NCBI GenBank assembly: GCA_028695135.1 | Contig: JAQVJM010000004.1 | Span: 1,696-65,695, forward strand | DNA: 64,000 nucleotides | DNA from: Candidatus Moraniibacteriota bacterium | Lineage (GTDB): Bacteria > Patescibacteriota > Minisyncoccia > Moranbacterales > UBA9337 | Direction of reading: 5' to 3' | Part shown: in pieces, positions 2 to 63,458 of the stretch | Layout: each line of letters starts with the position of its first letter | How positions within the stretch are numbered: the first letter of the stretch is position 1 | Position numbers and translations under genes: made by a program | The notes under the pieces: generated by a model | The model's database searches: none | Seen by the model: only the letters and a program-made list of their open reading frames with translations | What the model was told of the DNA's origin: nothing

Positions 2-835
2 GTGGTGAATCTGGATATGGAAAAGCCCGAAGAATACCTCGACTGTAAAGCCGAAAGTATTTTCGGCTACAGTCTCAAAATCCAAAATTCAAAATTCCAA
101 ATTCCGAATAAATCAAAAATTCCAAATCAAAAATTCCAAACTGTCATAGCTGAAGATATCGAGCTGGGAGTAAAAAATTCAAAATTCGAAATTCATTCGC
201 CACGGCGAACAAAATTTTTGATCAATCTGATCGGAGACTTCAATATCGAAAACGCATTGGCGGCGATATCGGCGGGAGTAGCGCAGGGGATAAGCCTGGA
301 GGTCTGCGCCAAAGCCCTCGGTAAAATCAAAGGCGTTCCCGGAAGGATGGAGAGCGTCTCCAATGACAGAGATTTCAATATAATTGTCGATTACGCCGTG
401 ACTCCGGATTCGCTGGAAAAACTCTACGCTCTTTTGGATAGGATAAACTATAAAAAAGGAAAAATTATCGCGGTTTTCGGCGCTTGCGGGGAAAGAGATA
501 GAGGAAAGCGTCCGATCATGGGAGAAATCGTCTCGCGGTTCGCCGATTATGTCATTGTCACGAATGAGGATCCCTACAATGAAGATCCCCGAAGGATAAT
601 CGATGAAGTTGCCGGCGGAGTCAAAGGGAAAAAAGAAGGAAAAAATTTCTTCAAAATTTTTGACAGGAGAGAAGCGATAAGAAAGTCTTTGGAATTGGCC
701 ATGCCGGGGGATTTCGTTGTTATAACCGGCAAGGGGGCGGAGGAAACGATGGCGGTAGGTAAAAAGAGAATCCCCTGGAACGACAAAAAGGTCGTTTTGG
801 AGGAGTTGGCCCTGTTGACAAGAAATCAAAAATAG
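2..835 (+). CDS. murE: UDP-N-acetylmuramoyl-tripeptide ligase (MurE-type), C-terminal part; 5' end lies outside the window; an in-frame AT-rich repeat insertion sits in codons ~25-70
   Basis: Mur ligase C-terminal motifs DYAVTPDSLEKL, GACGERDRGKRP and VTNEDPYNEDP; ORF is open from the window edge. Confidence 0.8.
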   Translation: MVNLDMEKPEEYLDCKAESIFGYSLKIQNSKFQIPNKSKIPNQKFQTVIAEDIELGVKNSKFEIHSPRRTKFLINLIGDFNIENALAAISAGVAQGISLEVCAKALGKIKGVPGRMESVSNDRDFNIIVDYAVTPDSLEKLYALLDRINYKKGKIIAVFGACGERDRGKRPIMGEIVSRFADYVIVTNEDPYNEDPRRIIDEVAGGVKGKKEGKNFFKIFDRREAIRKSLELAMPGDFVVITGKGAEETMAVGKKRIPWNDKKVVLEELALLTRNQK

Positions 836-2633: not shown

Positions 2634-3105
2634 TAAATCCGAAATACGAAGTGCGAAATTCGAAACAAATCAAAATGACAGAAAACAAAAATACAAAAAA
2701 ATTTGATTTAGAGGATCGCACTTTTAAATTTGCTAAAAATGTCAGAGTATTTGTCAAAAAAATTCCCAAAAGCATTTCTAATTTTGAAGATGGGAAACAG
2801 CTGGTGCGTTCCTCCGGTTCTGTTGGTGCGAATTACATAGAGGCCAATGAATCTTTAGGTAAGAAAGATTTTCTGATGAGAATTAAAATTTCCAGAAAAG
2901 AGGCTAAAGAAAGTCGATTTTGGTTAAATTTAATAGATATTGGCAATGAGAAAGAATTGTAAAAGGAAAGAAATGATCTTGCCAATGAAGCGACAGAACT
3001 AATGATGATATTCGGACCCATTATTAGAAAATCAGAATAAGTTTAGAATTTTAATTTTTAGTTATTATTTCGGATTTCGAGTTTCGAATTTCGTATTTAA
3101 GACTT
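2634..3105. mobile_element. small cargo element: four-helix-bundle (23S rRNA intervening-sequence family) gene flanked by ~30-bp imperfect terminal inverted repeats built from CGAAAT(A/T)CGAA units
   Basis: left end CCGAAATACGAAGTGCGAAATTCGAAAC (2636-2663); right end TTTCGGATTTCGAGTTTCGAATTTCGTATTT (3063-3093) is its approximate reverse complement. Confidence 0.55.
2651..2962 (+). CDS. four-helix-bundle protein (23S rRNA IVS-associated protein family)
   Basis: family-typical segments EDRTFKFAKNV..KIPK, GANYIEANE, SRKEAKESRFWLNLI; 103 aa. Confidence 0.75.
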   Translation: MRNSKQIKMTENKNTKKFDLEDRTFKFAKNVRVFVKKIPKSISNFEDGKQLVRSSGSVGANYIEANESLGKKDFLMRIKISRKEAKESRFWLNLIDIGNEKEL

Positions 3106-4005
3106 ATGGCTACCTTGTATAATCAATCAGACAGGAATAAACGCTTGACCTGGATCTATATCACAGGCTTTTTGGTGTTTGTCATCGGCGTGGGATATGT
3201 TTTCGCCGGGGCGATGGGAAACAGCTGGATACTTTACGGAGCGGTCATATTTTCCGTGCTTATGAGCTTCTCTTCTTATTGGTGGAGCGACAAGATCGTT
3301 CTCTCTATGAGTGGAGCCAAAGAAGTCACCCGTGAGAACGCCAAGGAGATTTATCGCATCGTTGAAAACCTCTGTATAACTGCCGGGCTTCCGGTTCCCA
3401 AGATTTATATTATTGAAGACAGCGCTCCCAACGCTTTCGCGACTGGTAGAGATCCCGAGCATGGAGTCATATGTTTTACGACCGGGATCATCCAAAAACT
3501 TGAGAAAGCGGAATTGGAAGGGGTTGTTGCTCATGAGCTTTCCCACATAGGCAATCGCGATGTACTCCTCTCGACAGTCGTTGTCGTGCTTGTCGGATTT
3601 GTAACGCTTCTGGCTGATTGGTTCCGCCATTGGGCTTTTTGGGGAGGAAGGTCGAGAAACAACGAAGGCGGAGGACAATTGCGCCTGATACTGATCGTTC
3701 TGGCGATCCTGCTTTCCATACTGGCTCCGATCGCGGCGATGCTGATGCAATTGGCGATTTCGAGAAAGAGGGAATTTCTGGCCGATGCAGATGGGGCGCT
3801 TCTTACTCGTTATCCCGAAGGGCTGGCGAGAGCCTTGGAAAAGATCTCTTCCGACCAAGAACCGCTGGAAGCGGCCAATCGCGCCACGGCTCATCTCTAT
3901 ATCGCCAATCCTTTCAAAGGCAAAAAAGCCTCCAAGTTTTTTATGACCCATCCTCCGATCGAGGAAAGGGTGGCTAAATTAAGAGGATTGGATGTAAATA
4001 GTTAA
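3106..4005 (+). CDS. htpX: zinc metalloprotease HtpX (M48 family)
   Basis: HELSH zinc motif, N-terminal TM helices, HtpX-like length and C-terminal MTHPPIEERV. Confidence 0.9.
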   Translation: MATLYNQSDRNKRLTWIYITGFLVFVIGVGYVFAGAMGNSWILYGAVIFSVLMSFSSYWWSDKIVLSMSGAKEVTRENAKEIYRIVENLCITAGLPVPKIYIIEDSAPNAFATGRDPEHGVICFTTGIIQKLEKAELEGVVAHELSHIGNRDVLLSTVVVVLVGFVTLLADWFRHWAFWGGRSRNNEGGGQLRLILIVLAILLSILAPIAAMLMQLAISRKREFLADADGALLTRYPEGLARALEKISSDQEPLEAANRATAHLYIANPFKGKKASKFFMTHPPIEERVAKLRGLDVNS

Positions 4006-4419: not shown

Positions 4420-4860
4420 ATGCAGTTCAAACGGCCGGAAAATACGGATAAATATTATTGGACCCGTCACAGTATCGGGAAGATGATGCAATACGGACTG
4501 AGCGCCCAGAGAGTGATCAGGGTTATCAGAAGTTATACAAGGATAGAGGAGGGCATAGCGGAAAACACGATTGCGGTGATGCAGCCGACTTCCACCCGCA
4601 GGGACAAGGATGGAGAGCTTAAGTGGAACCAGGAGATATGGGTGATGTATCAGCTCCGACGCAAGGTCGGAGCAAATTCCAAAAAACAAATTCCAAATTC
4701 CAAACAAATCTCAAAATCAAAATTCAAAAATCGAAAAACAATTCCAAATTCTGCGAATGGAAAAATTCGCATCATCAGCGCTTGGAAGTTTCCGGGAATG
4801 AGTCCGAAAAGCAATCCGATTCCCAGGGAAATATTGGAGGAGATTGAGGATGTATTATAA
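4420..4860 (+). CDS. DUF4258-like putative toxin-domain protein with an in-frame AT-rich repeat insertion (codons ~85-120)
   Basis: N-terminal TRHSIGKMMQYGLSAQRVIRVI resembles the T-x-H-[AS]-x-x-R-M-x-x-x-G-[IL]-S-x-x-x-V signature of DUF4258; the repeat segment translates as NSKKQIPNSKQISKSKFKNRKTIPNS. Confidence 0.45.
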   Translation: MQFKRPENTDKYYWTRHSIGKMMQYGLSAQRVIRVIRSYTRIEEGIAENTIAVMQPTSTRRDKDGELKWNQEIWVMYQLRRKVGANSKKQIPNSKQISKSKFKNRKTIPNSANGKIRIISAWKFPGMSPKSNPIPREILEEIEDVL

Positions 4861-12745: not shown

Positions 12746-12773
12746 ATTATAAAGCATTTTGCATTTTGCATCT
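12746..12773 (+). repeat. heptanucleotide tandem repeat (GCATTTT)x4 in the typA 5' leader
   Basis: GCATTTTGCATTTTGCATCTTGCATTTT, 20 nt before the GTG start. Confidence 0.7.
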
Positions 12774-12792
12774 TGCATTTTAAATTTTCAAC

Positions 12793-16149: not shown

Positions 16150-16274
16150 ATTGAGCTGAGTTAAAAATTAAAAATTCAAATTTCAAAATTATAGTTTAAA
16201 TAATTTTCAAATTAAAATTAATCTTGTATTTATATTTTATAACGCATCTGATTTATTTCCAAACTTTTTTAAAA

Positions 16275-16808: not shown

Positions 16809-18908
16809 ATGAAAAACGATTTAAAAAGCTTATTTGATCCGAAATCGATCGCTGTTGTCGGGGCGAGCGAAACGGAGGGGAAAATAGGATTTATAATTGC
16901 AAAAAATATTTTAAAACTGGGATTTAAAGGCGAAGTTTTTTTAGTTAATCCCAAATACGATAAATTATTCGGGGAAAAATGCTATGCTTCTTTGAATGAT
17001 ATCAAGCCCTCACCCCTAACCCCTCTCCCGGAGGGAGAGGGGAATCCTGTTGTCGATCTGGCGATAATCGTCATTCCCTCAAAATTTGTAAACCAAACCA
17101 TCGGGGAGGCCAAAGGAAAAGTGAAGAACTTCACGATTATTTCCGCCGGATTTTCGGAAACCGGAAAGGAAGGTAAAAAGAGGGAAAGAGAGCTTTCAAC
17201 ACTGGCAAAAAAGAATAAGTTAAATATTTTGGGACCGAACTGCTTGGGATTCATATCTCCTAAATTGAAATTAAACGCGTCTTTCGCCGGAGGGCTTCCG
17301 GAGGAGGGCAATGTCGCTTTCGTTTCCCAGTCGGGAGCGCTGGCCGTGGCTGTGATGGATGTGGCCAAAAAAGAGGAGATAAAATTTTCCAAAATAATTT
17401 CCATCGGAAACAAGATGCAGATAGGAGAGGCCGAGCTTATGGATTATCTGGAAAACGACGAAGACACGAAAGTTATAGCGATGTATCTGGAGGGAATCAG
17501 CAATGGCAAAAAATTCATAAAAATCGCTCGAAGAGTTTCCCGAAAAAAGCCGATCGTTGTTTTGAAATCGGGCAAGAGCGAAAAATCCCAAAAGGCGATT
17601 TCCTCGCATACGGGAGCGCTGGCGGGAAGCGACGAGATAATGGATGCGGCTTTCCGCAAGGCTGGAATAATAAGAGCTAATAATTTGGAAGAATTTTTCG
17701 GTTTTATAAAATTAGCTTCCAATTTCGGATCGGTAACAAGCCCTAAGACAGCCATCATAACCAATGCCGGAGGCCCGGGAGTCCTGGCCACGGACAGTTT
17801 CCATGGAAAAAATTTGGAACTGGTCGAATTTTCGGAAAAAACGAAAAATAAATTCAGGGAATTTTTGCCGGAAGAGTCTTCGGTGGAAAATCCGATCGAT
17901 CTTCTCGGCGATGCGAGAGAAGACCGGTATCAAAAAGTTTTGGAAATTTTGGATCAAGAGGATATCGGAAACATAATCTGCCTTATGACGGCTCAGGATC
18001 AGACTCCTACCGAAAAAATCGCCGAGACCCTTATTGATTTTTCAAGAAAATCTTCAAAAAACATCATTCCCGTTTTTGTGGGCGGGGAAAAAATGGAGAA
18101 GACATTCAAGATTCTTAACGACAACGATATGCCCAATTTTTCTTTTCCCAAGGAAGCTGTGGACGCCCTGGATCATTTCTATAATTGGTACATGAATAAA
18201 AGAAACGATCGGGAAAAAGAAATTCCGGATGAAAACGAAAGCAAAGAAGATATTTCCCGGATGATAGATAGCGTAAAGAAGAATAATAGAAGCGCGCTTC
18301 TCTTCGGCGAAGCGGCTGAAATCATGAAAAAATACAAAATTCCGGTCGTTGATTTTTCAAATATCGCGCTGAATGAAAAGATGCATTCCCGAATTGATTT
18401 TCCTGCTACGCTAAAAGTTGACAGCGACAAGGTTCTTCACAAGACTGATAAGCAGGGGCTCGTTCTGAATATCAAAAACATGGACGAGCTGGAGGAAACG
18501 ATCGGGAAAATGAGGAAAAATTTTCCCAAAGAAAATCTGATAATACAGCCGATGATAAAATATGAATCGGAAATAATTCTGGGAATGAAAAGAGATCCGA
18601 TTTTCGGACCGGTGATAGTTTACGGTCTGGGAGGAATCTATACCGAAGTTTTTAAGCTGGTTGATTTTTTGATTCTTCCGCTTTCCAAAAATGAGATAAA
18701 AAGAAGCCTCGAAAAAAGCAAAATCGGATTTTTGTTCAAAGAGACCCGAGGAAAGAAAATGGCGAATATCGATGAAATGGCCGGACTGATTTTCAATTTT
18801 TCCCGTCTGGCCAGAGATCAGAAAGATATAAAAGAAATTGATATCAATCCGCTTCTGATAGATAAAAAAGGAAAGATTTTGGCGGTGGATGTGAAAATAA
18901 TTTTATAA
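16809..18908 (+). CDS. acetate--CoA ligase (ADP-forming), fused alpha/beta (NDP-forming acyl-CoA synthetase)
   Basis: CoA-binding N-terminus (SIAVVGAS), succinyl-CoA-synthetase-like flavodoxin domain, His-loop SSHTGALAG, C-terminal ATP-grasp; 699 aa. Confidence 0.85.
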   Translation: MKNDLKSLFDPKSIAVVGASETEGKIGFIIAKNILKLGFKGEVFLVNPKYDKLFGEKCYASLNDIKPSPLTPLPEGEGNPVVDLAIIVIPSKFVNQTIGEAKGKVKNFTIISAGFSETGKEGKKRERELSTLAKKNKLNILGPNCLGFISPKLKLNASFAGGLPEEGNVAFVSQSGALAVAVMDVAKKEEIKFSKIISIGNKMQIGEAELMDYLENDEDTKVIAMYLEGISNGKKFIKIARRVSRKKPIVVLKSGKSEKSQKAISSHTGALAGSDEIMDAAFRKAGIIRANNLEEFFGFIKLASNFGSVTSPKTAIITNAGGPGVLATDSFHGKNLELVEFSEKTKNKFREFLPEESSVENPIDLLGDAREDRYQKVLEILDQEDIGNIICLMTAQDQTPTEKIAETLIDFSRKSSKNIIPVFVGGEKMEKTFKILNDNDMPNFSFPKEAVDALDHFYNWYMNKRNDREKEIPDENESKEDISRMIDSVKKNNRSALLFGEAAEIMKKYKIPVVDFSNIALNEKMHSRIDFPATLKVDSDKVLHKTDKQGLVLNIKNMDELEETIGKMRKNFPKENLIIQPMIKYESEIILGMKRDPIFGPVIVYGLGGIYTEVFKLVDFLILPLSKNEIKRSLEKSKIGFLFKETRGKKMANIDEMAGLIFNFSRLARDQKDIKEIDINPLLIDKKGKILAVDVKIIL
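17005..17050 (+). repeat. GC-rich palindromic element inserted in frame in the ACS gene (CCCCTCTCCC-GGA-GGGAGAGGGG)
   Basis: 23-nt perfect palindrome at 17020-17042, translated as PSPLTPLPEGEGNP between conserved blocks. Confidence 0.7.
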
Positions 18909-19071: not shown

Positions 19072-20799
19072 ATGAATTGGAAAATAAAAGAAAATAAAAA
19101 AGATTTAAAAACCGACGATAAAAACAGCCGGCCTTTTTCTTTGCATCCGGTCGTTTTGAAGATTTTGGCGCAAAGAGGGATAACAGGATCAGACGAGATA
19201 AAATCTTTCATTTTTCCCGATTATGACAAAGGGGTGCACAGCCCTTTTCTTTTTGAAAAAATGGAAAAAGCTATGGAGAGGCTGAAAAAGATTGACAGGA
19301 AAAAGGAGAAGATCCTAGTTTTCGGGGATTATGACGCCGACGGAATAACTTCGGCACTGATTGCCAAGAAATCTCTGGAAGAAGCCGGATTTGAAACTTT
19401 TGTCTATATTCCCCATAAAGAAAAAGAAGGGTATGGGCTTAACAGGAAAGCGATGGAAAAATTTCTGGAAAAAGGGGTGCGTTTGGTGGTTACCACCGAT
19501 TGCGGGATAGCCAACAAAAAAGAAATTGAGGATATGACAGGCCGGGGAGTCGATTTTATCGTGACCGACCATCATCACATCCCTCCGGAAATTCCCGATG
19601 CGATAGCGATCATCAATCCGAAGATGAAAGATTCCGGCTATCCTTTCGAGGATCTTTCCGGAGCGGGAGTTTCTTTCAAGTTCGCCCAAGCCGTTTATGA
19701 AACTTTTATTCCGGAAAAAAAAGAGCAGATAAAATGGCTTTTGGATCTGGTCGCCATAGGAACCGTAGCTGACCTAGTATCCCTCAGAGGGGAAAACAGG
19801 ATATTGGTAAAATTTGGTCTTTTAGTCCTTTCCAAGACCAAAAGAGTCGGTCTTCAGGAGATGTTTAAAGTCGGAAGGATCCTGGTCGATGAGAATAATT
19901 TTCCCGATTCCCAGAAGATTTCTTTCCAGATCGCTCCGAGAATAAACGCTGCCAGCCGGATGAGTCATGCCGAAAAAGCCCTTTTCCTCCTAGCGGAAGA
20001 TGATAGAGTGAAGGCCAGGGATATGGCGCTGGAATTGGAGGCGCAAAATTCGAGCCGGCAGAAAGAGACACAGCAGGTAGTTGCGGAAGCGGAGAAAATC
20101 GTAAGCAATATTTTCAAGGACAGAAACTTCATCTTTATCGCCAATGAGAATTTCCCGATAGGCACTGTGGGATTGGTTGCGGGAAAACTGGCGGATAAGT
20201 TCAGGCGTCCGGCGGCTATTCTTAAGAAAGGAAAAAAAACGAGCAAGGGATCTTTCAGGAGCATCTCTCAAATAAACATAATAGAGAATATAGAAAAATG
20301 CCGGGATCTGCTCCTTAAATATGGGGGCCATTCCCAGGCGGCGGGAATCACGATCAAGAATGAAAATCTGGAAAAATTTTATGACAAGATGGACGAAATC
20401 ATAAGCGAAGAGATAAAGGAGTTGGATCTGTCTCCGGAGGTGGAGGTGGATATGGAAATTTTCCCCGGGGATATAAGCTTCGGATTGGCGGAGGATCTCA
20501 AAAAGCTCGAGCCTTTCGGGCAAGGGAATAGGGAGCCTGTCTTTTTGATGAAAAATTTGTCGATCAAGGAGCTCAAGTGGTTGGGAAACGGGGAGAAACA
20601 TCTCAAATTGTTCCTCCAGCCGAAAAACAAAAGCCCCAAAATTTTTGAGGCGATCGGCTTTAGCATGCTCGAAAAATTCGGCGACATAAAGATCGGAGAA
20701 ACTATCGATCTGGTCTTCAATCTCGGCCAGGACGAATGGAACGGGAACAAGAAGATTCAGATGAAAATAATTGATTTGAAAACTTCGAAAACCGATTGA
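19072..20799 (+). CDS. recJ: single-stranded-DNA-specific exonuclease RecJ
   Basis: DHH motifs (FGDYDADGITS, VTTDCG, DHHH), DHHA1 domain GGHSQAAG; 575 aa. Confidence 0.85.
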   Translation: MNWKIKENKKDLKTDDKNSRPFSLHPVVLKILAQRGITGSDEIKSFIFPDYDKGVHSPFLFEKMEKAMERLKKIDRKKEKILVFGDYDADGITSALIAKKSLEEAGFETFVYIPHKEKEGYGLNRKAMEKFLEKGVRLVVTTDCGIANKKEIEDMTGRGVDFIVTDHHHIPPEIPDAIAIINPKMKDSGYPFEDLSGAGVSFKFAQAVYETFIPEKKEQIKWLLDLVAIGTVADLVSLRGENRILVKFGLLVLSKTKRVGLQEMFKVGRILVDENNFPDSQKISFQIAPRINAASRMSHAEKALFLLAEDDRVKARDMALELEAQNSSRQKETQQVVAEAEKIVSNIFKDRNFIFIANENFPIGTVGLVAGKLADKFRRPAAILKKGKKTSKGSFRSISQINIIENIEKCRDLLLKYGGHSQAAGITIKNENLEKFYDKMDEIISEEIKELDLSPEVEVDMEIFPGDISFGLAEDLKKLEPFGQGNREPVFLMKNLSIKELKWLGNGEKHLKLFLQPKNKSPKIFEAIGFSMLEKFGDIKIGETIDLVFNLGQDEWNGNKKIQMKIIDLKTSKTD

Positions 20800-42565: not shown

Positions 42566-43483
42566 TCATATCGTTATTTTACAAACCCTTCTTTTTCCGG
42601 CCAGGTCTTTGTAAAATTTGACCTTGGCTTTCGGAAAATAATTTTTTATGATTTTTTCGAGCTTATTTTTTTGTTCGGGAGAAATTTCAAAGAAAATCGC
42701 AAATCGCAAATCGCAAATCGCAAATCTTTCAGATATCTGCTTCAGCAATTTTTCATAGTGAGCGAGGCCGTAATTTTCAGAATAAAGCGAGGATCCCGGT
42801 TCGTATTTACTTACATCTTTCGGGGAAGAAGCATATATTTTTTTTGAGAGATAAGGAAGATTGGCGGCGATGATTAGCTTATCGAGCTTTAGCTTCGTCA
42901 GCTTCTCAGTTAGCGGCGAAAGGAGACTGCCATGAATGAATTTTATGTTTCGTGCGACATTATGTCTTTTGGAATTTTTTCTAGCTATTTTTAAAGCCAT
43001 TCTCGAAACATCGATTCCGTAAAGCTCATGATTATTATTTTTTGATTCCAATCGCTTTGCGATTGAGACAATGATATTCCCGCTTCCGGTACCTATGTCA
43101 CAAATCGCGTATCGCGTATCGCTCAACTTTTTATTTTTCTTAGTTATCCCAGTATTTTCTTGTCCCTTGTCGCTTGTCGCTTGCTTCAGAACGAGATCCA
43201 CGATCAATTCCGTTTCCGGCCGGGGAATGAGCGTGTGCTTGTTGACCTCAAAATCCAACCCATAAAATTCTTTGTGTCCCGTTATATATGCGATCGGCTC
43301 GTGTTTCATCCTTCTTTTTAAAAATGATCCAAGTTTTGCGTTTTGCGTTTTGCGAATCTCGTATTCAGGATGCGATAAAACAAACTCCCGCGGTTTTTTA
43401 ATCGCATGAGAAATCAAAATCTCCAGGTCTAGTGGAGATAATTTTTCATAATATTTTTTTAAAATGTCGGATATTCTGCTCAT
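42566..43483 (-). CDS. prmC: release-factor glutamine N5-methyltransferase PrmC (HemK); carries three heptamer microsatellites in frame
   Basis: SAM motif DIGTGSGNI, catalytic NLPY (NPPY variant); immediately downstream of prfA on the same strand. Confidence 0.8.
   Translation of the reverse strand: MSRISDILKKYYEKLSPLDLEILISHAIKKPREFVLSHPEYEIRKTQNAKLGSFLKRRMKHEPIAYITGHKEFYGLDFEVNKHTLIPRPETELIVDLVLKQATSDKGQENTGITKKNKKLSDTRYAICDIGTGSGNIIVSIAKRLESKNNNHELYGIDVSRMALKIARKNSKRHNVARNIKFIHGSLLSPLTEKLTKLKLDKLIIAANLPYLSKKIYASSPKDVSKYEPGSSLYSENYGLAHYEKLLKQISERFAICDLRFAIFFEISPEQKNKLEKIIKNYFPKAKVKFYKDLAGKRRVCKITI
42694..42726. repeat. (AAATCGC)x4.7 heptamer tandem repeat inside prmC; related tracts (ATCGCGT)x2.7 at 43104-43122 and (TTTTGCG)x3 at 43334-43354
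   Basis: seen in sequence; all lie inside the prmC reading frame (peptides AICDLRFAIF, RYAICDIG, TQNAKLG). Confidence 0.8.
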
Positions 43484-52575: not shown

Positions 52576-54009
52576 ATGAAAAAATATTTTTATATAACAA
52601 CGACCCTTCCCTACGTGAATGATAAGCCTCATATCGGTTTTGCCAGCGAGATCGTTTTGGCCGACGCGCGGGCGCGTTTTGAGGGGTCTTTGGGAAAGGA
52701 AGTAGTTTTTAATACCGGAACGGACGAGCATGGAGCAAAGATCTGGCAGAAAGCTCGAGAAGAAGCAAGAGACGTTCAGGAATATGTGGATGAATACGCA
52801 GCTAAATTTGACGAGCTTAAAAAAATGTTGAATTTAAGCTATACAAATTTTATCAGGACGACTGACGAGAAGCATTTGAGGGCGGTCCGGGAAATGTGGA
52901 AAAGAGTAGATCAAAACGGATATATTTATAAGAAGAAATACAAGATAAAATATTGCATAGGTTGTGAATTGGAAAAGACCGATAGCGAACTTATCGACGG
53001 TTGTTGCCCGCTTCATCCGGGGAAAGAATTGGAAATCATCGAAGAAGAGAATTATTTTTTCAAATTCAGCGCATTTCAAGAAAAACTTTTGGAGCTATAC
53101 AAAGATAATCCAGATTTTGTAATCCCCCAAAAGAGGCTCAACGAAATAAGCTCTTTTGTGGAACGCGGGCTGGAAGATTTTTCCGTTTCAAGGCTCAAAG
53201 AAAAAATGCCTTGGGGCGTGCCGGTTCCGGGGGACGACAGCCAAGTGATGTATGTCTGGTTCGATGCCCTGACCAATTATATTTCCACTCTCGGCTGGCC
53301 GGATGACAAAGAGAATTTCGAGAAATTTTGGGGAACCGAAGAAAACCCGAATGCCGTCCAAATCGCGGGAAAAGACAATCTCCGCCAGCAGTCGGCTATG
53401 TGGCAAGCGATGCTTATAGCCGCTGATTTGCCTACAAGTAAGCAGGTGTTTATTAATGGATTTATAGGGGTAGATGGGCAGAAGATGAGCAAGTCCCTAG
53501 GGAATGTGATTTCCCCAAAAGAAATGGTGGCAAAATTCGGAGTGGACGGAACAAGATATCTTCTTCTTACCAAGGGGACATTCGGAGAAGATAGTGATAT
53601 CTCTTGGGAAAAGTTAACCGGTAAATACAATTCAGACTTGGCTAACGGTTTGGGGAATTTGGTTTCGAGAGTTATTGTGCTTTCTGGAGATTTGGATTTT
53701 AAAACTTCTGGATCCGACTCTGTTTTTTCTGAGGAAGATGTGAAAATGATGAATAAGATGAACATGGATAAGATTTTAGATAATATCTGGAATATTGTGC
53801 GTGAAGATAATAAATATATTGAAGACAGAAAACCTTGGGAGCTAAAGAAAGAAAATCAAGAAGAATTTGAAAAAGTAATGAAAAAACTTGTCTCAGATCT
53901 CTATCATATATCTCAACTCTTAACACCTTTCATGCCGGAGACTTCTGAGAAAATTAAAAAAGCTCTTGAGACAAAAGAAAGAGTTATTTTATTTGAAAAG
54001 ATAAGATGA
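52576..54009 (+). CDS. metG: methionine--tRNA ligase (short form lacking the C-terminal dimerisation domain)
   Basis: HIGH variant PHIGF, zinc knuckle CIGC...C..H, KMSKS. Confidence 0.9.
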   Translation: MKKYFYITTTLPYVNDKPHIGFASEIVLADARARFEGSLGKEVVFNTGTDEHGAKIWQKAREEARDVQEYVDEYAAKFDELKKMLNLSYTNFIRTTDEKHLRAVREMWKRVDQNGYIYKKKYKIKYCIGCELEKTDSELIDGCCPLHPGKELEIIEEENYFFKFSAFQEKLLELYKDNPDFVIPQKRLNEISSFVERGLEDFSVSRLKEKMPWGVPVPGDDSQVMYVWFDALTNYISTLGWPDDKENFEKFWGTEENPNAVQIAGKDNLRQQSAMWQAMLIAADLPTSKQVFINGFIGVDGQKMSKSLGNVISPKEMVAKFGVDGTRYLLLTKGTFGEDSDISWEKLTGKYNSDLANGLGNLVSRVIVLSGDLDFKTSGSDSVFSEEDVKMMNKMNMDKILDNIWNIVREDNKYIEDRKPWELKKENQEEFEKVMKKLVSDLYHISQLLTPFMPETSEKIKKALETKERVILFEKIR

Positions 54010-54482
54010 ATAAAATAGTTTCCAATCTGATCCTGATTTATGATGATAAAAAAATTCTTTTGGGAATGAAAAAGCGGGGATTTGGCGAGGGTAAATGGAA
54101 TGGATTTGGCGGAAAACCTCGTGAAAATGAGACTATAAAAAAAGCAGCAGTGAGAGAGCTTAAAGAAGAAGCTTTTATTGATTTGAAAAATCTCGAAATC
54201 TTAAAAGAGAGAGGAATTATCAATTTTCACTTTGAAGGTAATGATGAGATTCAAGAAGTTCATTTCCTATCTGTTTCCAGCGATGATATTATCGGAGAAC
54301 CTCAGGAAACGGAAGAGATGCTTCCCAAATGGTTTGCGCATAGCGAAATTCCTTTCGGAAAAATGTGGGTAGATGACCCACATTGGATGCCACACTTACT
54401 GAAAGGTAAAAATTTATCCGGAGAGTTTTATTTTAATGAGGATGGAAGTGCTATTTTAGAAAGTAAGTTGGAAGTTAAATGA
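54006..54482 (+). CDS. NUDIX hydrolase (MutT-like)
   Basis: Nudix box GKWNGFGGKPRENETIKKAAVRELKEEA; start overlaps the metG stop (ATGA). Confidence 0.8.
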   Translation: MNKIVSNLILIYDDKKILLGMKKRGFGEGKWNGFGGKPRENETIKKAAVRELKEEAFIDLKNLEILKERGIINFHFEGNDEIQEVHFLSVSSDDIIGEPQETEEMLPKWFAHSEIPFGKMWVDDPHWMPHLLKGKNLSGEFYFNEDGSAILESKLEVK

Positions 54483-54483
54483 A

Positions 54484-54519
54484 AACTCTCTTGAATTATT
54501 TTTCAAGAGAGTTTCTTTT
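54484..54519. terminator. bidirectional terminator (ACTCTCTTGAA-TTATTT-TTCAAGAGAGT)
   Basis: 11-bp perfect stem between convergent genes. Confidence 0.6.
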
Positions 54520-54524
54520 CGGGT

Positions 54525-54803
54525 CTACCAAAATATTATTATGGAAGCCGGCGAGTCGCTTTCTTTCCATTTTTCTTTAAAGCCTTCGAGGAACTCATCC
54601 TTTATTAGTTGGAAAGAAGATGCAACAAGTAAAACAGCTCCCCCAAGTTTATTTTTGTCACAGCCTTTTCTCGTTTTCAGTATTGTGTCAGCCAGTCTAT
54701 GACCCTCCTCTACTGTATGTCCTCCAGTCAGGCCAGATAAGGTACCCCGGAAATCGAAGAGGCCATTTGGAGAACTAATTTTAATTTCTTCTTTTTTGGC
54801 CAT
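54525..54803 (-). CDS. hypothetical protein (92 aa), second gene of a two-gene SD-coupled operon; toxin/antitoxin-like arrangement
   Basis: MAKKEEIKISSPNGLFDFRGTLSGLTGGHTVEEGHRLAD...; ATG lies 2 nt after the upstream stop. Confidence 0.45.
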   Translation of the reverse strand: MAKKEEIKISSPNGLFDFRGTLSGLTGGHTVEEGHRLADTILKTRKGCDKNKLGGAVLLVASSFQLIKDEFLEGFKEKWKESDSPASIIIFW

Positions 54804-54805
54804 CC

Positions 54806-54970
54806 TCAGCCACAAGTTTGTATCAGGGACAATTTTTCTTCCTTTAACAATATAGAAGAGTTACCGATTTTTGTGGTTTTTGGAAGAATTTGCATATAAA
54901 CTTTAAAGCAATTCAAAAAAATTTCCCCTGAACTATCCTCAATTTGAATAATATTCACCTGGTTCTCCAT
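54806..54970 (-). CDS. hypothetical protein (54 aa), first gene of the bicistron; unlisted in the ORF track
   Basis: SD AAGGAGG 7 nt before ATG 54970; MENQVNIIQIEDSSGEIFLNCFKVYMQILPKTTKIGNSSILLKEEKLSLIQTCG. Confidence 0.4.
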   Translation of the reverse strand: MENQVNIIQIEDSSGEIFLNCFKVYMQILPKTTKIGNSSILLKEEKLSLIQTCG

Positions 54971-55071
54971 AATAGACCTCCTTTTTTTGATCTGCGGCTT
55001 TGTTTTGTGTAATATTAATTTATAACAAAGAACAATGAATAATAATAAATAATTTCCATAAAGTCAAGACG

Positions 55072-55920
55072 ATGTTTGATTCACACGCTCATGTAAATTT
55101 CAAGGCCTTTAAAGATGATGGAGACGATGTTATAAAGAGGTCTTTAGAAAGCAATACCTTTATAATTAACGTTGGCTCACAGTACAGTACAAGCCAGCGA
55201 GCTGTTGAATATGCTCAAAAATTTGAAACTGGAGTGTGGGCGGCCGTAGGGATTCATCCGATTCATATAAAAGTTAAAAGTGAAAAGTTAAAAGTCGAAA
55301 GTTCCACCCCCTCTCAATCTCCCCCTCAGGGAAGGGGAGAAGTTTATTTTGAAGAATTTGATTATGGTGAATACAAAAAATTAGCGGAAAATGAAAAAGT
55401 AGTGGCGATTGGAGAAGTCGGGCTGGATTATCATCACTTTGACGGGGTAACCGGAATTTCAGAAATAAAAGAAAAACAGAAGAAAGTTTTAAAAGAATTT
55501 ATCAAGCTTGCTAATGAAGTGAAAAAACCAATGGCTATTCACTGCTGGGATGCTTATGATGATTTATTTGAAATACTAAGAAAGAATCCAATTGAAAAAA
55601 GAGGGGTGGTGCACAGTTTTATTGGAAGCTGGAAGACGGCGCAGAAATTTATTGAAATGGGATACAAAATCGGACTCAATGGAATAATCACCTATTCGGA
55701 ATCTTATGATAAGCTTATCCGAAATATTGACTTGAAAGATGTCTTGATCGAGACTGACTGTCCGTATCTCAATCCCAAACCTCTGCCAAGAGAAGATAGA
55801 AATGAACCGATAAATGTAAAGTATGTCGCCCGAAAAATTTCTGAAGTAAAAGGGATTGAGATTGATGAAGTTGAAAGAATTACAGCCGAAAATGCCAAAA
55901 AATTATTCAAAATAAGATGA
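55072..55920 (+). CDS. tatD: TatD-family metal-dependent DNase/hydrolase; carries an in-frame composite repeat insertion
   Basis: DSHAHVNF start, GIHP, EVGLDYH, HCW(D), HSF(IG) motifs. Confidence 0.85.
   Translation: MFDSHAHVNFKAFKDDGDDVIKRSLESNTFIINVGSQYSTSQRAVEYAQKFETGVWAAVGIHPIHIKVKSEKLKVESSTPSQSPPQGRGEVYFEEFDYGEYKKLAENEKVVAIGEVGLDYHHFDGVTGISEIKEKQKKVLKEFIKLANEVKKPMAIHCWDAYDDLFEILRKNPIEKRGVVHSFIGSWKTAQKFIEMGYKIGLNGIITYSESYDKLIRNIDLKDVLIETDCPYLNPKPLPREDRNEPINVKYVARKISEVKGIEIDEVERITAENAKKLFKIR
55265..55345 (+). repeat. in-frame composite insertion in tatD: AT-rich (AAAGTTAAAAGTGAAAAGTTAAAAGTCGAAAG) unit plus GC-rich palindrome (CTCCCCCTCAGGGAAGGGGAG)
   Basis: translated as KVKSEKLKVESSTPSQSPPQGRGE between conserved GIHP and EEFD blocks. 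Confidence 0.7.
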
Positions 55921-55978
55921 AAAATGACCGGATCAAGAGTCAGAAGTATCCTGAGAGACATTGCCATTTTTAATTTTA

Positions 55979-56007
55979 TTGACATTATCATTTTCTTGTT
56001 CTAAAAT
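55979..56007 (+). promoter_or_regulatory. putative atp-operon promoter (TTGACA-17-TAAAAT)
   Basis: consensus -35 and a strong -10 with 17-nt spacing, ending 6 nt before the atpI-like ORF. Confidence 0.5.
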
Positions 56008-56012
56008 GGAAT

Positions 56013-56279
56013 ATGTTTAGAGAAAATTTGAAATCAGAGGATTTTAAAAAAAAGGAAGAAAAGAAGCAAATTAACAGCCAGTGGTCTGTTTTTTCTTTGG
56101 CAATGGAGTTGGGCTATTTAATTGCTATTCCTTTGGTTGCGACGGCGTTGCTAGGAAGATTTTTGGACAAAAAATTCGATTCTTCACCCTTGTTTTTATT
56201 GGCTGGAGTTTGCATAGCGATTATCTTGACAACATACTTAGTTTACAAAAAAACCATTTCGGTTCTTAACGACGAATAA
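56013..56279 (+). CDS. ATP synthase protein I-like small membrane protein (AtpI/AtpZ-like)
   Basis: 88 aa, two TM helices, located immediately upstream of atpB. Confidence 0.5.
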   Translation: MFRENLKSEDFKKKEEKKQINSQWSVFSLAMELGYLIAIPLVATALLGRFLDKKFDSSPLFLLAGVCIAIILTTYLVYKKTISVLNDE

Positions 56280-56289
56280 CGGAATAAAG

Positions 56290-57066
56290 TTGGGCAATTA
56301 CAATCAAATGGAAATTTCACTGGTTCCAGAATTAATAACTAATTTTGCAGGTTTCCCCGTCACAAACTCTGTTTTGGTGACTGCCATAGTGAGTATTTTG
56401 ATTATCTCAATTTCGCTTTTTATCAAAAAAAATATTTCAATGATACCTAAGGGCTTTCAGAATATAATCGAATATGTTCTGGAGGCTCTTTTAAATTTAG
56501 TCGATAGCGTTACTGGAGACAAAAATCAGACAAAAAAAATTTTTCCTCTTGTGGCTACCATATTTATTTTTGTAATTATTTCAAATTGGATCGGACTGAT
56601 TCCGGCTCTTATACCGGGAGGAACAATAGGCGTCAATCAGATCCATAACGGAGAAAGAATCCTGGTGCCTTTCATAAGGAGCGATAGCGCCGATCTTAAT
56701 ATGACTCTCGCCCTGGCTCTCATTGCCGTAGCTAGCGCTCAATTTATGGGAGCTACAGTGTTGGGCATAAAAAAATATGCCGGAAAATTTTTAGTCAGTC
56801 CTCTCAAAAAGCCCTATTTCATAGGAACATTTGTGGGGATTTTGGAGATTATATCTGAATTTGCCAAGATAATCTCATTTTCTTTTCGTCTTTTCGGAAA
56901 TGTTTTTGCGGGAGAAGTCCTTTTGACGGTTATGTTAATGCTCGTTCCGTATATACTCCCGTTGCCTTTCATATTTCTGGAGATTTTTGTGGGATTTATC
57001 CAAGCGCTTGTTTTTGCTATGCTTACTCTGGTTTTCATGAAGATGGCGACGGAAGAAGCGCATTAG
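56290..57066 (+). CDS. atpB: F0F1 ATP synthase subunit a
   Basis: conserved FRLFGNVFAGEVLL (essential Arg) and PLPFIFLEIFVGFIQALVFAMLT. Confidence 0.9.
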   Translation: MGNYNQMEISLVPELITNFAGFPVTNSVLVTAIVSILIISISLFIKKNISMIPKGFQNIIEYVLEALLNLVDSVTGDKNQTKKIFPLVATIFIFVIISNWIGLIPALIPGGTIGVNQIHNGERILVPFIRSDSADLNMTLALALIAVASAQFMGATVLGIKKYAGKFLVSPLKKPYFIGTFVGILEIISEFAKIISFSFRLFGNVFAGEVLLTVMLMLVPYILPLPFIFLEIFVGFIQALVFAMLTLVFMKMATEEAH

Positions 57067-57514: not shown

Positions 57515-57605
57515 TAATGATTCTGATTAATAAAATTAATCATTAATCATTAACCATTGATCATTATCATTTTTCGCTTAGTGCTCAATGTTTAATGTTT
57601 AATAA
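57515..57605. repeat. atp-operon spacer motif cluster (AATTAATCATTAATCATTAACCATTGATCATTA; GTGCTCAATGTTTAATGTTTAAT)
   Basis: atpE-atpF spacer. Confidence 0.7.
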
Positions 57606-60130: not shown

Positions 60131-60226
60131 ATTAATTATTAAACATCAAACATTAATCATTGAGCATTAAATACCCATATTTTTATATCAATAATGATTG
60201 ATGATGAACAATGAATAGTTAACGAA
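60131..60226. repeat. atp-operon spacer motif cluster (AACATTAATCATTGAGCATTAAAT; CAATAATGATTGATGATGAACAATGAAT)
   Basis: atpA-atpG spacer. Confidence 0.7.
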
Positions 60227-61183: not shown

Positions 61184-61208
61184 GATTAAGAATTATGAAT
61201 TAAGAATT

Positions 61209-61790
61209 ATGAATGTGGAATTCGAAGCGACATTTAAAAATATCAGCAAAGATGAATTTAGAGATAAGCTAAGAGATTTAGGCGCTGAAATGGTTAAGGA
61301 AGAATTTTTGCAGAAAAGAAGCACATTCAATGTGCCAAGAGGTTGCAAGATTAATGAAAGCTGGCTAAGGGTTAGAGACGAAGTAGATAAGATAACTTTG
61401 ACATTCAAATCAGGCGGAAAGCAATCCGCCATAGAAGATCAAAAAGAGATAGAGCTTAAGGTTGATAATTATGAAGAAGCTAAAAAATTTTTGGAAGTGC
61501 TGGGTTGCAGAAAGAAATCTTATCAGGAGACAAAGAGAGAAATCTGGAAATTGGATGAAGTAGAAGTTATGATTGACGAATGGCCTTTTCTTGAACCTTT
61601 TGCGGAGATCGAAGGCAAAAATGAGGAAGAAGTAAAGAAAGCCAGCGAGAAATTGGGATTTGATTATAATGATGCAGTTTTTGGTCCGGTTAGCATACTA
61701 TATTCCGAAAAATACGGAGTGACTGAGAAATTTGTAAATAATGAAGTCAAAGAAATTTTGTTTAATGGCGATAATCCATTTATAAGATAA
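61209..61790 (+). CDS. CYTH-domain protein (class IV adenylyl cyclase / triphosphate tunnel metalloenzyme family) inserted in the atp operon
   Basis: EFEATFK N-terminal beta-strand with conserved Glu pair, ESWLRVRD, ITLTFK, EIELKV, EVMIDEWPFLEPFAEIEG; start taken at the second ATG of a 14-nt tandem duplication. Confidence 0.7.
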   Translation: MNVEFEATFKNISKDEFRDKLRDLGAEMVKEEFLQKRSTFNVPRGCKINESWLRVRDEVDKITLTFKSGGKQSAIEDQKEIELKVDNYEEAKKFLEVLGCRKKSYQETKREIWKLDEVEVMIDEWPFLEPFAEIEGKNEEEVKKASEKLGFDYNDAVFGPVSILYSEKYGVTEKFVNNEVKEILFNGDNPFIR

Positions 61791-61906: not shown

Positions 61907-63367
<1,461 letters not shown>

Positions 63368-63458
63368 TTCATCATTTATCATTAAATATTAATCAATCAT
63401 TATGATATGGCTTAATTGTACCCGATGTTTAATGATTAATAATCAATGATTAATTAAA
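63368..63458. repeat. atp-operon spacer motif cluster (ATTAATCAATCATT; CCCGATGTTTAATGATTAATAATCAATGATTAATT)
   Basis: atpD-atpC spacer. Confidence 0.7.

Follow-up and report, generated by a model that had tools for sequence, protein, structure and literature searches.

The closest described counterparts of the repeat analysed here are the BoxC/PIT/TM sequences of Escherichia coli (TMECO) and other bacteria, a class of intrastrand triplex motifs for which triplex formation was shown in vitro with the E. coli sequence (Holder et al. 2015, PMC4666352). According to this source, the loci carrying triplex motifs (TM) are unusually variable locally in E. coli, the potential intrastrand triplex (PIT) elements block polymerases in vitro, and the TMECO motifs of E. 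coli K-12 are always intergenic. Here, we describe a motif of this type (E2) located inside the tatD gene of a Candidatus Moranbacteria genome (~40% G+C), a member of the Candidate Phyla Radiation (CPR, Patescibacteria), where it is read in frame beside a heptanucleotide tandem array. Both repeats belong to a 64-kb stretch of DNA, analysed as a whole and referred to below as the window, which carries a second triplex motif (E1) in another gene (Table 1). As argued below, it is probable, at roughly three chances in four, that two independent repeat events of ordinary kinds accumulated in a single permissive surface loop of TatD.

Other described repeats share individual traits with this locus. 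The Rickettsia palindromic elements (RPEs; Ogata et al. 2000, as presented in PMC3184786) are dispersed palindromic sequences found in frame in conserved genes of bacteria with small genomes, where, in that account, they add peptide segments at the surface and spare the host protein. Among the long simple-sequence repeats (SSRs) of prokaryotes, heptanucleotide repeats are over-represented and form the most abundant class, for which polymerase slippage was proposed (Mrazek et al. 2007, through PMC4692102 and PMC4679880). The element class, the tandem-repeat class and, in principle, in-frame palindromic repeats (RPEs and others reviewed in PMC3184786) are already known; the literature searched contained no description of the sequence family of the tatD element, of triplex-type motifs in CPR, or of the frequent translation of triplex motifs in housekeeping genes.

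The tatD Gene and Its Variable Loop

The product of the host gene matches the TatD_DNase family along its full length (PF01026, covering 1-253 of 253 positions, E 2.7e-73) and is 100% identical to a TatD-family hydrolase of Candidatus Moranbacteria present on five contigs from independent sources. The catalytic or conserved residues H5, H7, E115, H157, H181, and D229 are invariant in the alignment of homologues (A1). Its closest relatives (P0002-P0009) show 70-78% identity and the same synteny as the window, with the gene order metG, NUDIX, (GIY-YIG), tatD, atpI, atpB, and atpE. The preliminary description of this DNA had reported an A/T-rich repeat followed by a G/C palindrome, both read in frame in tatD, and its sequence and frame were confirmed. 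Nor is this segment a conserved part of TatD orthologues: the loop of the nearest ones (HPIHLFxSPNVPxEExxxEEFDY) is 14 residues (42 nt) shorter, and the 14 additional residues of the window protein were apparent against the five syntenic relatives compared. At the DNA level, homology to these relatives ends at ...CATCCGATTCAT and restarts at GAAGAATTTGATTAT, with 84 nt in between in the window against 42 nt that cannot be aligned to them. The more distant TM0667 of Thermotoga (PDB 1j6o) aligns in two blocks, 1-67 and 101-279, separated by 33 residues in the query and 9 in TM0667, which is thus shorter by ~24 residues at the insert site.

This loop, placed after the GIHP strand on the catalytic face of the barrel, is variable in length and sequence in the alignment of TatD proteins from Moranbacteria. 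In an AlphaFold model built with 30 homologues, with a mean predicted local distance difference test (pLDDT) score of 86.4, the only segment of the protein below 50 comprises residues 72-90, inside the inserted segment (67-90). The insert is predicted to be disordered in this model, and all catalytic motifs of TatD are intact, as in a tolerated insertion. Upstream of the gene (54525-55070), two minus-strand open reading frames (ORFs) of 96 and 54 aa with no Pfam match take the place of the GIY-YIG gene that separates tatD from the NUDIX gene in the relatives.

Table 1. Positions of the repeats and of the host gene tatD in the 64-kb window.
Feature	Position	Strand	Sequence or basis
tatD, TatD-family Mg-dependent DNase/hydrolase, 282 aa, host of the insert	55072-55920	+	ORF and Pfam
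Heptanucleotide tandem array, translated IKVKSEKLKVES	55268-55303		(TAAAAGT)x5.1
E2, 36-nt potential intrastrand triplex motif, class II purine motif	55305-55340	-	Three-box scan
Third box of E2, mirror repeat of the purine arm	55305-55314	+	CACCCCCTCT (complement AGAGGGGGTG)
Hairpin of E2, 10 bp with one C.A mismatch	55318-55340	+	TCTCCCCCTC-AGG-GAAGGGGAGA
E1, second triplex motif, canonical CCCTCTCCC type	17007-17042	-	CCCCTCTCCC-TCC-GGGAGAGGGG-TTA-GGGGTGAGGG
Heptamer arrays of the window	76-140, 3067-3098, 4673-4704, 12754-12781, 16161-16191, 42694-42726, 43159-43183, 43333-43354, 57535-57571, 60138-60171, 61185-61214, 63357-63393

A Three-Box Triplex Motif in Frame within tatD

The plus strand of E2 reads CACCCCCTCTCAATCTCCCCCTCAGGGAAGGGGAGA (as a 36-mer, TCTCCCCTTCCCTGAGGGGGAGATTGAGAGGGGGTG), organised as CACCCCCTCT-CAA-TCTCCCCCTC-AGG-GAAGGGGAGA, and the minus strand as TCTCCCCTTC-CCT-GAGGGGGAGA-TTG-AGAGGGGGTG, that is, a pyrimidine box followed by its purine inverse and by a mirrored version of that purine box with one T. 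The palindrome of the preliminary description corresponds to a genuine dispersed repeat (see below). It is imperfect: read one way, a perfect 7-bp stem closes a loop of 9 nt; read the other way, the stem has 10 bp, one of them mismatched, and the loop 3 nt. The third box, CACCCCCTCT, had been overlooked. On the plus strand E2 is translated as (S)TPSQSPPQGRGE, and together with the A/T tract, also in frame, as KVKSEKLKVESSTPSQSPPQGRGE, of which the two parts are IKVKSEKLKVES-STPSQSPPQGRGE; VESSTPSQSPPQGR is a tryptic peptide predicted from the insert-bearing protein. A -1 frameshift signal, consisting of a slippery heptamer and the hairpin, was considered and rejected, as the required distance from the hairpin holds no XXXYYYZ site and the whole of the homology to TatD is encoded in frame 0.

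The window was scanned for three-box motifs following the published criteria for potential intrastrand triplex motifs (ITxF definition), which here meant stems no shorter than 8 nt, no more than a single mismatch, loops between 1 and 6 nt, and triads of the types G.G-C, A.A-T, or T.A-T. E2 was detected with 10 triads and loops of 3+3 nt; its third strand is free of mismatches, and its Watson-Crick pairing has one. The window contains exactly two motifs of 10 triads, E2 and E1, both of them of 36 nt, with loops of 3+3 nt, and on the minus strand, and no motif of 10 or more triads appeared in 60 dinucleotide shuffles. The ITxF definition of Holder et al. (2015) calls for three consecutive blocks, Y-R-R', of the same strand; the stems measure 6-15 nt and tolerate a single mismatch, the loops measure 1-6 nt, and the third block has to be compatible with G.G-C, A.A-T, and T.A-T triads. 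By sequence, both E2, with its single Watson-Crick mismatch, and E1, which is perfect, fall within this definition. As described for such motifs, those of the window are in excess over scrambled sequence and have G/C-rich stems (>60% G+C). A 21-mer of E2 is unique in the window and was not recovered in 100 shuffles.

Other scans of the region gave little. The predicted mRNA fold of 55255-55365 was unremarkable (z +0.2), and the Rfam search of 54000-57000, with E values up to 1, returned only two chance snoRNA-like matches, none of them at the element. Local spikes of G+C were tried as a means of finding further elements in the window and were rejected as too unspecific. An A/T-rich three-box match of eight triads at 19703-19735 (CTTTTATT..AAAAAAAAG..GATAAAAT) is probably due to chance, as shuffles yield ~0.5 motifs of at least eight triads per window.

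E2 Belongs to a Dispersed Family

We defined the family of E2, or CTCCCCCTC type, by the core CCCCCTCTCAATCTCCCCCTC followed, after a loop of 0-6 nt, by the arm GAGGGGGAGA; its consensus is ..CA CCCCCTCTC AA TCTCCCCCTC (loop 0-6 nt) GAGGGGGAGA GG. Members of this family are common in CPR and groundwater genomes, in intergenic regions as well as within genes. The 21-mer CCCCCTCTCAATCTCCCCCTC, exact in E2, was found in 110 metagenome stretches that correspond to 97 distinct copies, against a chance expectation of ~0.2 in a collection of that order by our own estimate; the genome of the window is itself outside the GTDB representatives and the metagenome collection searched. The right arm is perfect in 40 of the 97 copies and has a single mismatch to the consensus arm GAGGGGGAGA in 36 others, the group in which E2 is found, and 'CA' precedes the core in 55. 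A further copy was located in an intergenic region of a Parcubacteria genome (L141), where CCTCCCCCTCTCAATCTCCCCCTCAACTGAGGGGGAGA matches CCACCCCCTCTCAATCTCCCCCTCAGGGAAGGGGAGA of the window at 24 of the first 25 positions. E2 is, in consequence of its boxes (CTCCCCCTC versus CCCTCTCCC), a member of a family of its own, distinct from the canonical type, and it is a slightly decayed copy of it. Its identification rests on family membership and not on stability, because the energy of its hairpin is no better than that of shuffles.

The exact hairpin of E2 had no match in IMG/VR. Perfect CTCCCCCTC..GAGGGGGAG hairpins are present there in 22 cases, none of them with a third box, and they resemble ordinary terminators, so they were set aside as uninformative for the family. 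A de novo origin of E2 from the native SPNVPPEE codons, suggested by an ungapped 48-nt register between L001 and the window, was also rejected in view of the 24/25 match to a family of 97 copies.

Intergenic copies (L141, 273-366; L130, 12442-12541; and many of L207-L316) are often paired with a motif of another type in inverted orientation across 15-25 nt of A-rich spacer, in a manner that resembles the pairs of types A and B described for E. coli. In many of these copies the distance from the purine arm GGGGGAGAGGAAA to an ATG downstream of it is 5-15 nt, and the arm could serve there as a ribosome-binding site or mask one.

A Second Motif as a Gauge of the Insertion Size

The preliminary description had drawn a parallel between the tatD segment and a similar structure around position 17005. 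For the G/C part the parallel is correct, as E1 is a perfect triplex motif of 10 triads with loops of 3+3 nt; for the A/T part it does not hold, as the sequence upstream of E1 is ordinary conserved coding sequence with no A/T repeat. E1 has the canonical boxes of the E. coli type and the type-A TTA linker, yet with boxes of 10 nt, and its hairpin (-11.8 kcal/mol) is more stable than expected from shuffles (z -2.9). It is read in frame (PSPLTPLPEGEG) in an ORF (16809-18908) for an ADP-forming acetyl-CoA synthetase, in which it represents a clean gain of 13 residues (PSPLTPLPEGEGN), missing from 29 of the 29 closest homologues and likewise from two solved structures, PDB 2csu and 8wzu. The gain amounts to exactly 39 nt between unrelated flanks (ATCAAG|...|CCTGTT), with no direct repeats around it. 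Hairpins of the E1 type with the third box are very widespread, with 97 stretches in IMG/VR alone, most of them with CCCTCACCCC or GGGGTGAGGG adjoining.

Compared with the BoxC/PIT/TMECO class (Hoyne et al. 2000; PMC4666352), the motifs described here share the three-box plan, the 3-nt linker, the mirror purine box with one T, boxes of ~9-10 nt in a total of ~36 nt, the G/C richness, the multiple copies, and the frequent arrangement in inverted pairs. E1 is the closer of both, with the type-A TTA linker and CCCTCTCCC / GGGAGAGGG / GGGTGAGGG boxes, whereas E2 has CTCCCCCTC boxes instead of CCCTCTCCC and a TTG/CAA linker. Neither of them matches the TMECO pattern CCCTCNCCC N3-6 GGGNGAGGG N3 GGGNGAGGG, to which E1 conforms if a second loop of 5 nt is allowed (10-nt boxes). 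A further difference concerns location: TMECO motifs are reported to be always intergenic in E. coli K-12, whereas E1, E2, and about a third of the family elsewhere are in genes and in frame, and the ORFs of E1 and E2 show full-length homology on either side of the motif. With the RPEs as described in PMC3184786, the motifs share in-frame insertion in conserved protein genes and the addition of surface peptide segments that spare the host protein. At 36-39 nt, or ~13 residues, they fall well short of the ~105-146 bp given there for RPEs, which are also A/T-richer, apparently unrelated in sequence, and devoid of a three-box mirror. Repetitive extragenic palindromic (REP) sequences, bacterial interspersed mosaic elements (BIMEs), and miniature inverted-repeat transposable elements, or MITEs, are likewise short, G/C-rich, hairpin-forming, and dispersed; however, direct reading of 55300-55345 and 17002-17047 revealed no terminal GTAG or CGTC tag as in RAYT-associated REPs, and the motifs have neither the terminal inverted repeats around a core nor the target-site duplication of MITEs. 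No direct repeat consistently flanks the copies of the family.

The A/T Tract Is One More Heptanucleotide Repeat

The A/T tract of tatD, TAAAAGT TAAAAGT GAAAAGT TAAAAGT CGAAAGT T, was recognised by Tandem Repeats Finder (TRF) as an array of period 7 with 5.1 copies, 82% matches, and a score of 51, and it ends 1 nt before E2. Arrays of this kind abound in the window, where TRF detected 12 of period 7, along with several more of period 14 or 21, and where a lag analysis revealed eight regions of 7-nt self-similarity, the tatD tract among them, against 0-2 at any other lag from 2 to 30. Their units are unrelated (CAAAATC, ATTTCGA, CAAATTC, GCATTTT, AAATCGC, CTTGTCG, GTTTTGC, ATTAATC, and others), and most of them are intergenic, several in spacers of the atp operon. 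The TAAAAGT unit was not found as an array elsewhere in the window, and a 12-mer of the tract (AAAGTTAAAAGT) recurs at only two other places, each with a mismatch. The tract of tatD is one more heptanucleotide simple-sequence repeat and not a dispersed element. It is longer than chance would lead one to expect, and the arrays of the window agree with the long SSRs of Mrazek et al. (2007), as far as PMC4692102 and PMC4679880 describe them, in their 7-nt unit, the few copies per array, the many units per genome, the mostly intergenic location, and the slippage proposed for their origin. They differ in that the tatD array is within coding sequence and in frame (36 nt), an uncommon situation where the unit length is not divisible by three.

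In-frame arrays are also present in prmC, the release-factor methyltransferase gene (42566-43483, minus strand), which contains three of them, (GCGATTT)x4.7, (CGACAAG)x3.6, and (GCAAAAC)x3.1; part of the core of the methyltransferase (RFAICDLRFAIFFE) seems to be encoded by one of these arrays. In addition, the regions 46-140 and 4653-4704 of the window show arrays directly following short hairpins (AGCCGAAAGTATTTTCGGCT and GCTCCGACGCAAGGTCGGAGC, respectively), which could represent a terminator plus an array or slippage beside a structure.

Two Repeats That Probably Met in One Loop by Independent Events

The preliminary description had concluded that the A/T-rich and G/C-rich types can travel together and had proposed a look for other composite copies. 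That conclusion was not borne out. Neither E1 nor the L141 copy is accompanied by an array, none of the 97 family copies carries (TAAAAGT)n, and only two of them have any 7-nt array within 60 nt, in both cases with other units and on the other side, a frequency of about the background rate. The size of the gain points the same way: since the net 42 nt are close to the G/C element alone (36-39 nt, as calibrated by the clean 39-nt gain of E1) plus one codon, the A/T tract occupies the place of the ancestral loop.

The sequence of events that we propose is the following. A G/C-rich three-box repeat of 36 nt would have entered tatD in frame, adding a Pro/Ser/Gly-rich, presumably disordered stretch of 13 residues. 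Motifs of this type would spread at the DNA level, with selection purging the copies that break the frame or the folded core, so that the survivors would be those in frame and in loops. The (TAAAAGT)x5 array most likely arose by replication slippage and may have overwritten the ancestral loop with its length roughly kept. Both events could have survived side by side on account of this loop being among the few places of tatD free in length and in sequence, and the insert would be neutral for the protein. A function for the E2 copy is unlikely, considering that it is not conserved, is decayed, and is predicted to be disordered.

Several points weigh against this reading. No TatD relative above 78% identity was found in the databases searched, a collection of 5.8 billion proteins among them, and the empty site is hence not alignable base by base; because 84 nt replace 42 unalignable nt, the order of the events and the exact boundaries are deduced rather than read. 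Neither a target-site duplication nor a transposase or any mobilising function was found, so "insertion" is used here as a description and not as a mechanism; no tag or associated gene was found with triplex-type motifs, and the literature search gave no link of them to transposons. The taxonomic origin is established for few of the metagenome copies, and the translation of the insert is deduced from the intact frame. Finally, the E2 hairpin, at -6.5/-7.2 kcal/mol as DNA (z ~0), is no stabler than composition-matched shuffles, and any structure-dependent role of this copy would be weak.

It is also conceivable, though unlikely, that the motif was inserted first, stalled the replicative polymerase, and provoked the adjacent slippage array as a "scar". 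The polymerase block exerted by PIT/TM elements in vitro and the higher local variability of their loci in E. coli (PMC4666352) would agree with such a sequence, as would the 1-nt distance between array and motif in tatD and the arrays at 76-140 and 4673-4704, which directly follow hairpins. However, with approximately one array per 5-8 kb, the two arrays near 97 copies are about what chance predicts, E1 has none, and most arrays of the window are far from any G/C hairpin.

A functional segment, either as an adaptive TatD loop that offers, for instance, a new surface for interactions near the active-site face of the barrel, or as a DNA triplex or mRNA hairpin modulating tatD and the downstream atp operon, is very improbable. 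Such a role could be imagined from the position of the loop on the catalytic face, after the GIHP strand, from its being long and variable throughout Moranbacteria, and from the intergenic family copies, in which a start codon often follows shortly after the purine arm GGAGAGG. Nevertheless, the segment is conserved in no relative and is predicted to be disordered, its hairpin is decayed and no stabler than shuffles, and the same repeat appears in unrelated proteins at unrelated sites; moreover, PIT elements showed neither promoter nor terminator activity in E. coli (PMC4666352).

The single composite mobile element implied by the preliminary description, with an A/T module and a G/C palindrome, (TAAAAGT)n + CACCCCCTCTCAATCTCCCCCTC, moving as a unit, is already largely refuted. 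The contiguity of both parts in tatD suggested it, and larger composites do exist, as upstream of many intergenic family copies there is A-rich sequence of 15-25 nt together with another, inverted motif; nonetheless, the heptamer tract accompanies no other family copy, nor E1, its unit forms no array elsewhere in the window, and a net gain of 42 nt is too small for both modules. Lastly, that the segment is absent from the mature protein, as an intervening or bypassed element ("byp"-like or an unrecognised intron), or that it is an assembly artefact, has a negligible probability: it does have the look of the yeast mitochondrial translational-bypass ("byp") elements, which are G/C-rich palindromic inserts in A/T-rich coding sequence, but it is a multiple of three, is stop-free, and leaves nothing to skip, in-frame continuity is the rule in the 33 family copies found in long ORFs, the identical protein is encoded on the five independent contigs, and Rfam gives no match.

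Triplex-Type Motifs Frequently Lie in Open Frames

The tatD copy is no exception within its family, given that in 33 of the 97 copies the reading frame stays open over 40 codons or more both before and after the motif. Ten of the long host genes were checked against Pfam and correspond to Mfd (two loci), TypA/BipA (two loci, at two sites), UvrC, a GT1 glycosyltransferase, the 5'-3' exonuclease of Pol I, a reverse transcriptase, LysRS, and IMPDH, with the motif placed within the Pfam domain match in most of them. The commonest reading, TPSQSPP..., uses the same frame as in the tatD of the window. With a CAA linker instead of the TAA of the E. coli type A, all three frames of the C-rich strand are stop-free, which makes survival in coding sequence easy, while the G-rich strand has one TGA. 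Within genes, copies persist only if the frame is kept and the site is a loop, and they then contribute short disordered segments rich in Pro, Ser, Gly, Glu, and Arg.

The TypA genes provide a filled/empty pair, with the motif present in L236 and its site empty in L254. At a second site, in domain 2 of TypA/BipA, L254 and L263 carry a HPLSISPSKEGER motif and L236 a different insert, HTTPPAAPLLNQGGE, while the G-domain site that holds the motif in L236 is occupied in L263 by another insert. This pattern suggests that the same loops were hit repeatedly or that one element replaced another there. In addition, three reverse-transcriptase genes (L246, L281, and L288) were found with the motif at the same position, just before GLPLGNxTSQ, in two reading frames.

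A further scan of 1.26 Mb around the relatives of tatD in GTDB genomes yielded ~17 more G/C-rich three-box motifs in CPR loci, about half of them in long ORFs. Their boxes differ (TCCTCCCCTC, CTCCTCTCCC, TTCCCTCCCTA, and TCCCCCCCTT, for example), and the inverted-plus-mirror relation is kept in all of them. Such motifs lie in frame in two tatD genes, as an inverted pair in that of a metagenome-assembled genome of Magasanikiibacteriota (L169, 10486-10570) and also in that of a single-cell genome of Patescibacteria (L176, 10644-10679), both in another loop than that of the window, before the GVIHCF strand. Hence, tatD has been hit independently by triplex-type motifs at least three times. Besides these, the tatD genes of two Moranbacteria carry in-frame copies of another G/C palindrome, CCGCCTCGCGTCGA...CGCGAGTCGAGGCGG, which is not of the triplex type (L006, ~3240-3290, P0041; L007, ~3380-3430, P0084); these are read as PASTRGDLSTRGG and PPRVDERSSSRVEAG, and the two copies occupy separate sites and point in opposite directions. 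The colonisation of CPR genes, in frame, by short structured repeats rich in G/C is therefore a general phenomenon.

Implications for CPR Genomes

Taken alone, the locus matters little: a flexible loop of a nuclease that does not look essential carries a tolerated passenger of 13 residues and a putative slippage array. Its interest comes from the class: the BoxC/PIT/TM motifs have so far been studied as intergenic curiosities, and here they appear in several families, across CPR genomes, and in conserved genes. The presence or absence of motifs between orthologues gives filled and empty sites from which insertion rules can be derived, and the inserts explain odd P/S/G/E/R-rich segments that inflate or confuse the alignment and annotation of CPR proteins. 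The motifs are also a natural resource with which one could ask if it is the three-box structure that is propagated.

More tentatively, and with somewhat less than an even chance of being correct, the triplex-type repeats could constitute a class of mobile or actively copied DNA that colonises the coding genes of CPR/Patescibacteria on a large scale, in a way reminiscent of RPEs. If so, different families with the same three-box architecture would have entered the same housekeeping genes repeatedly (tatD three times or more, TypA at two sites, Mfd, and UvrC), and the way in which their three boxes co-vary would suggest that they propagate through a DNA intermediate of triplex or fold-back form. 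They would then represent a steady source of disordered Pro/Ser/Gly-rich loops in the proteins of CPR bacteria.

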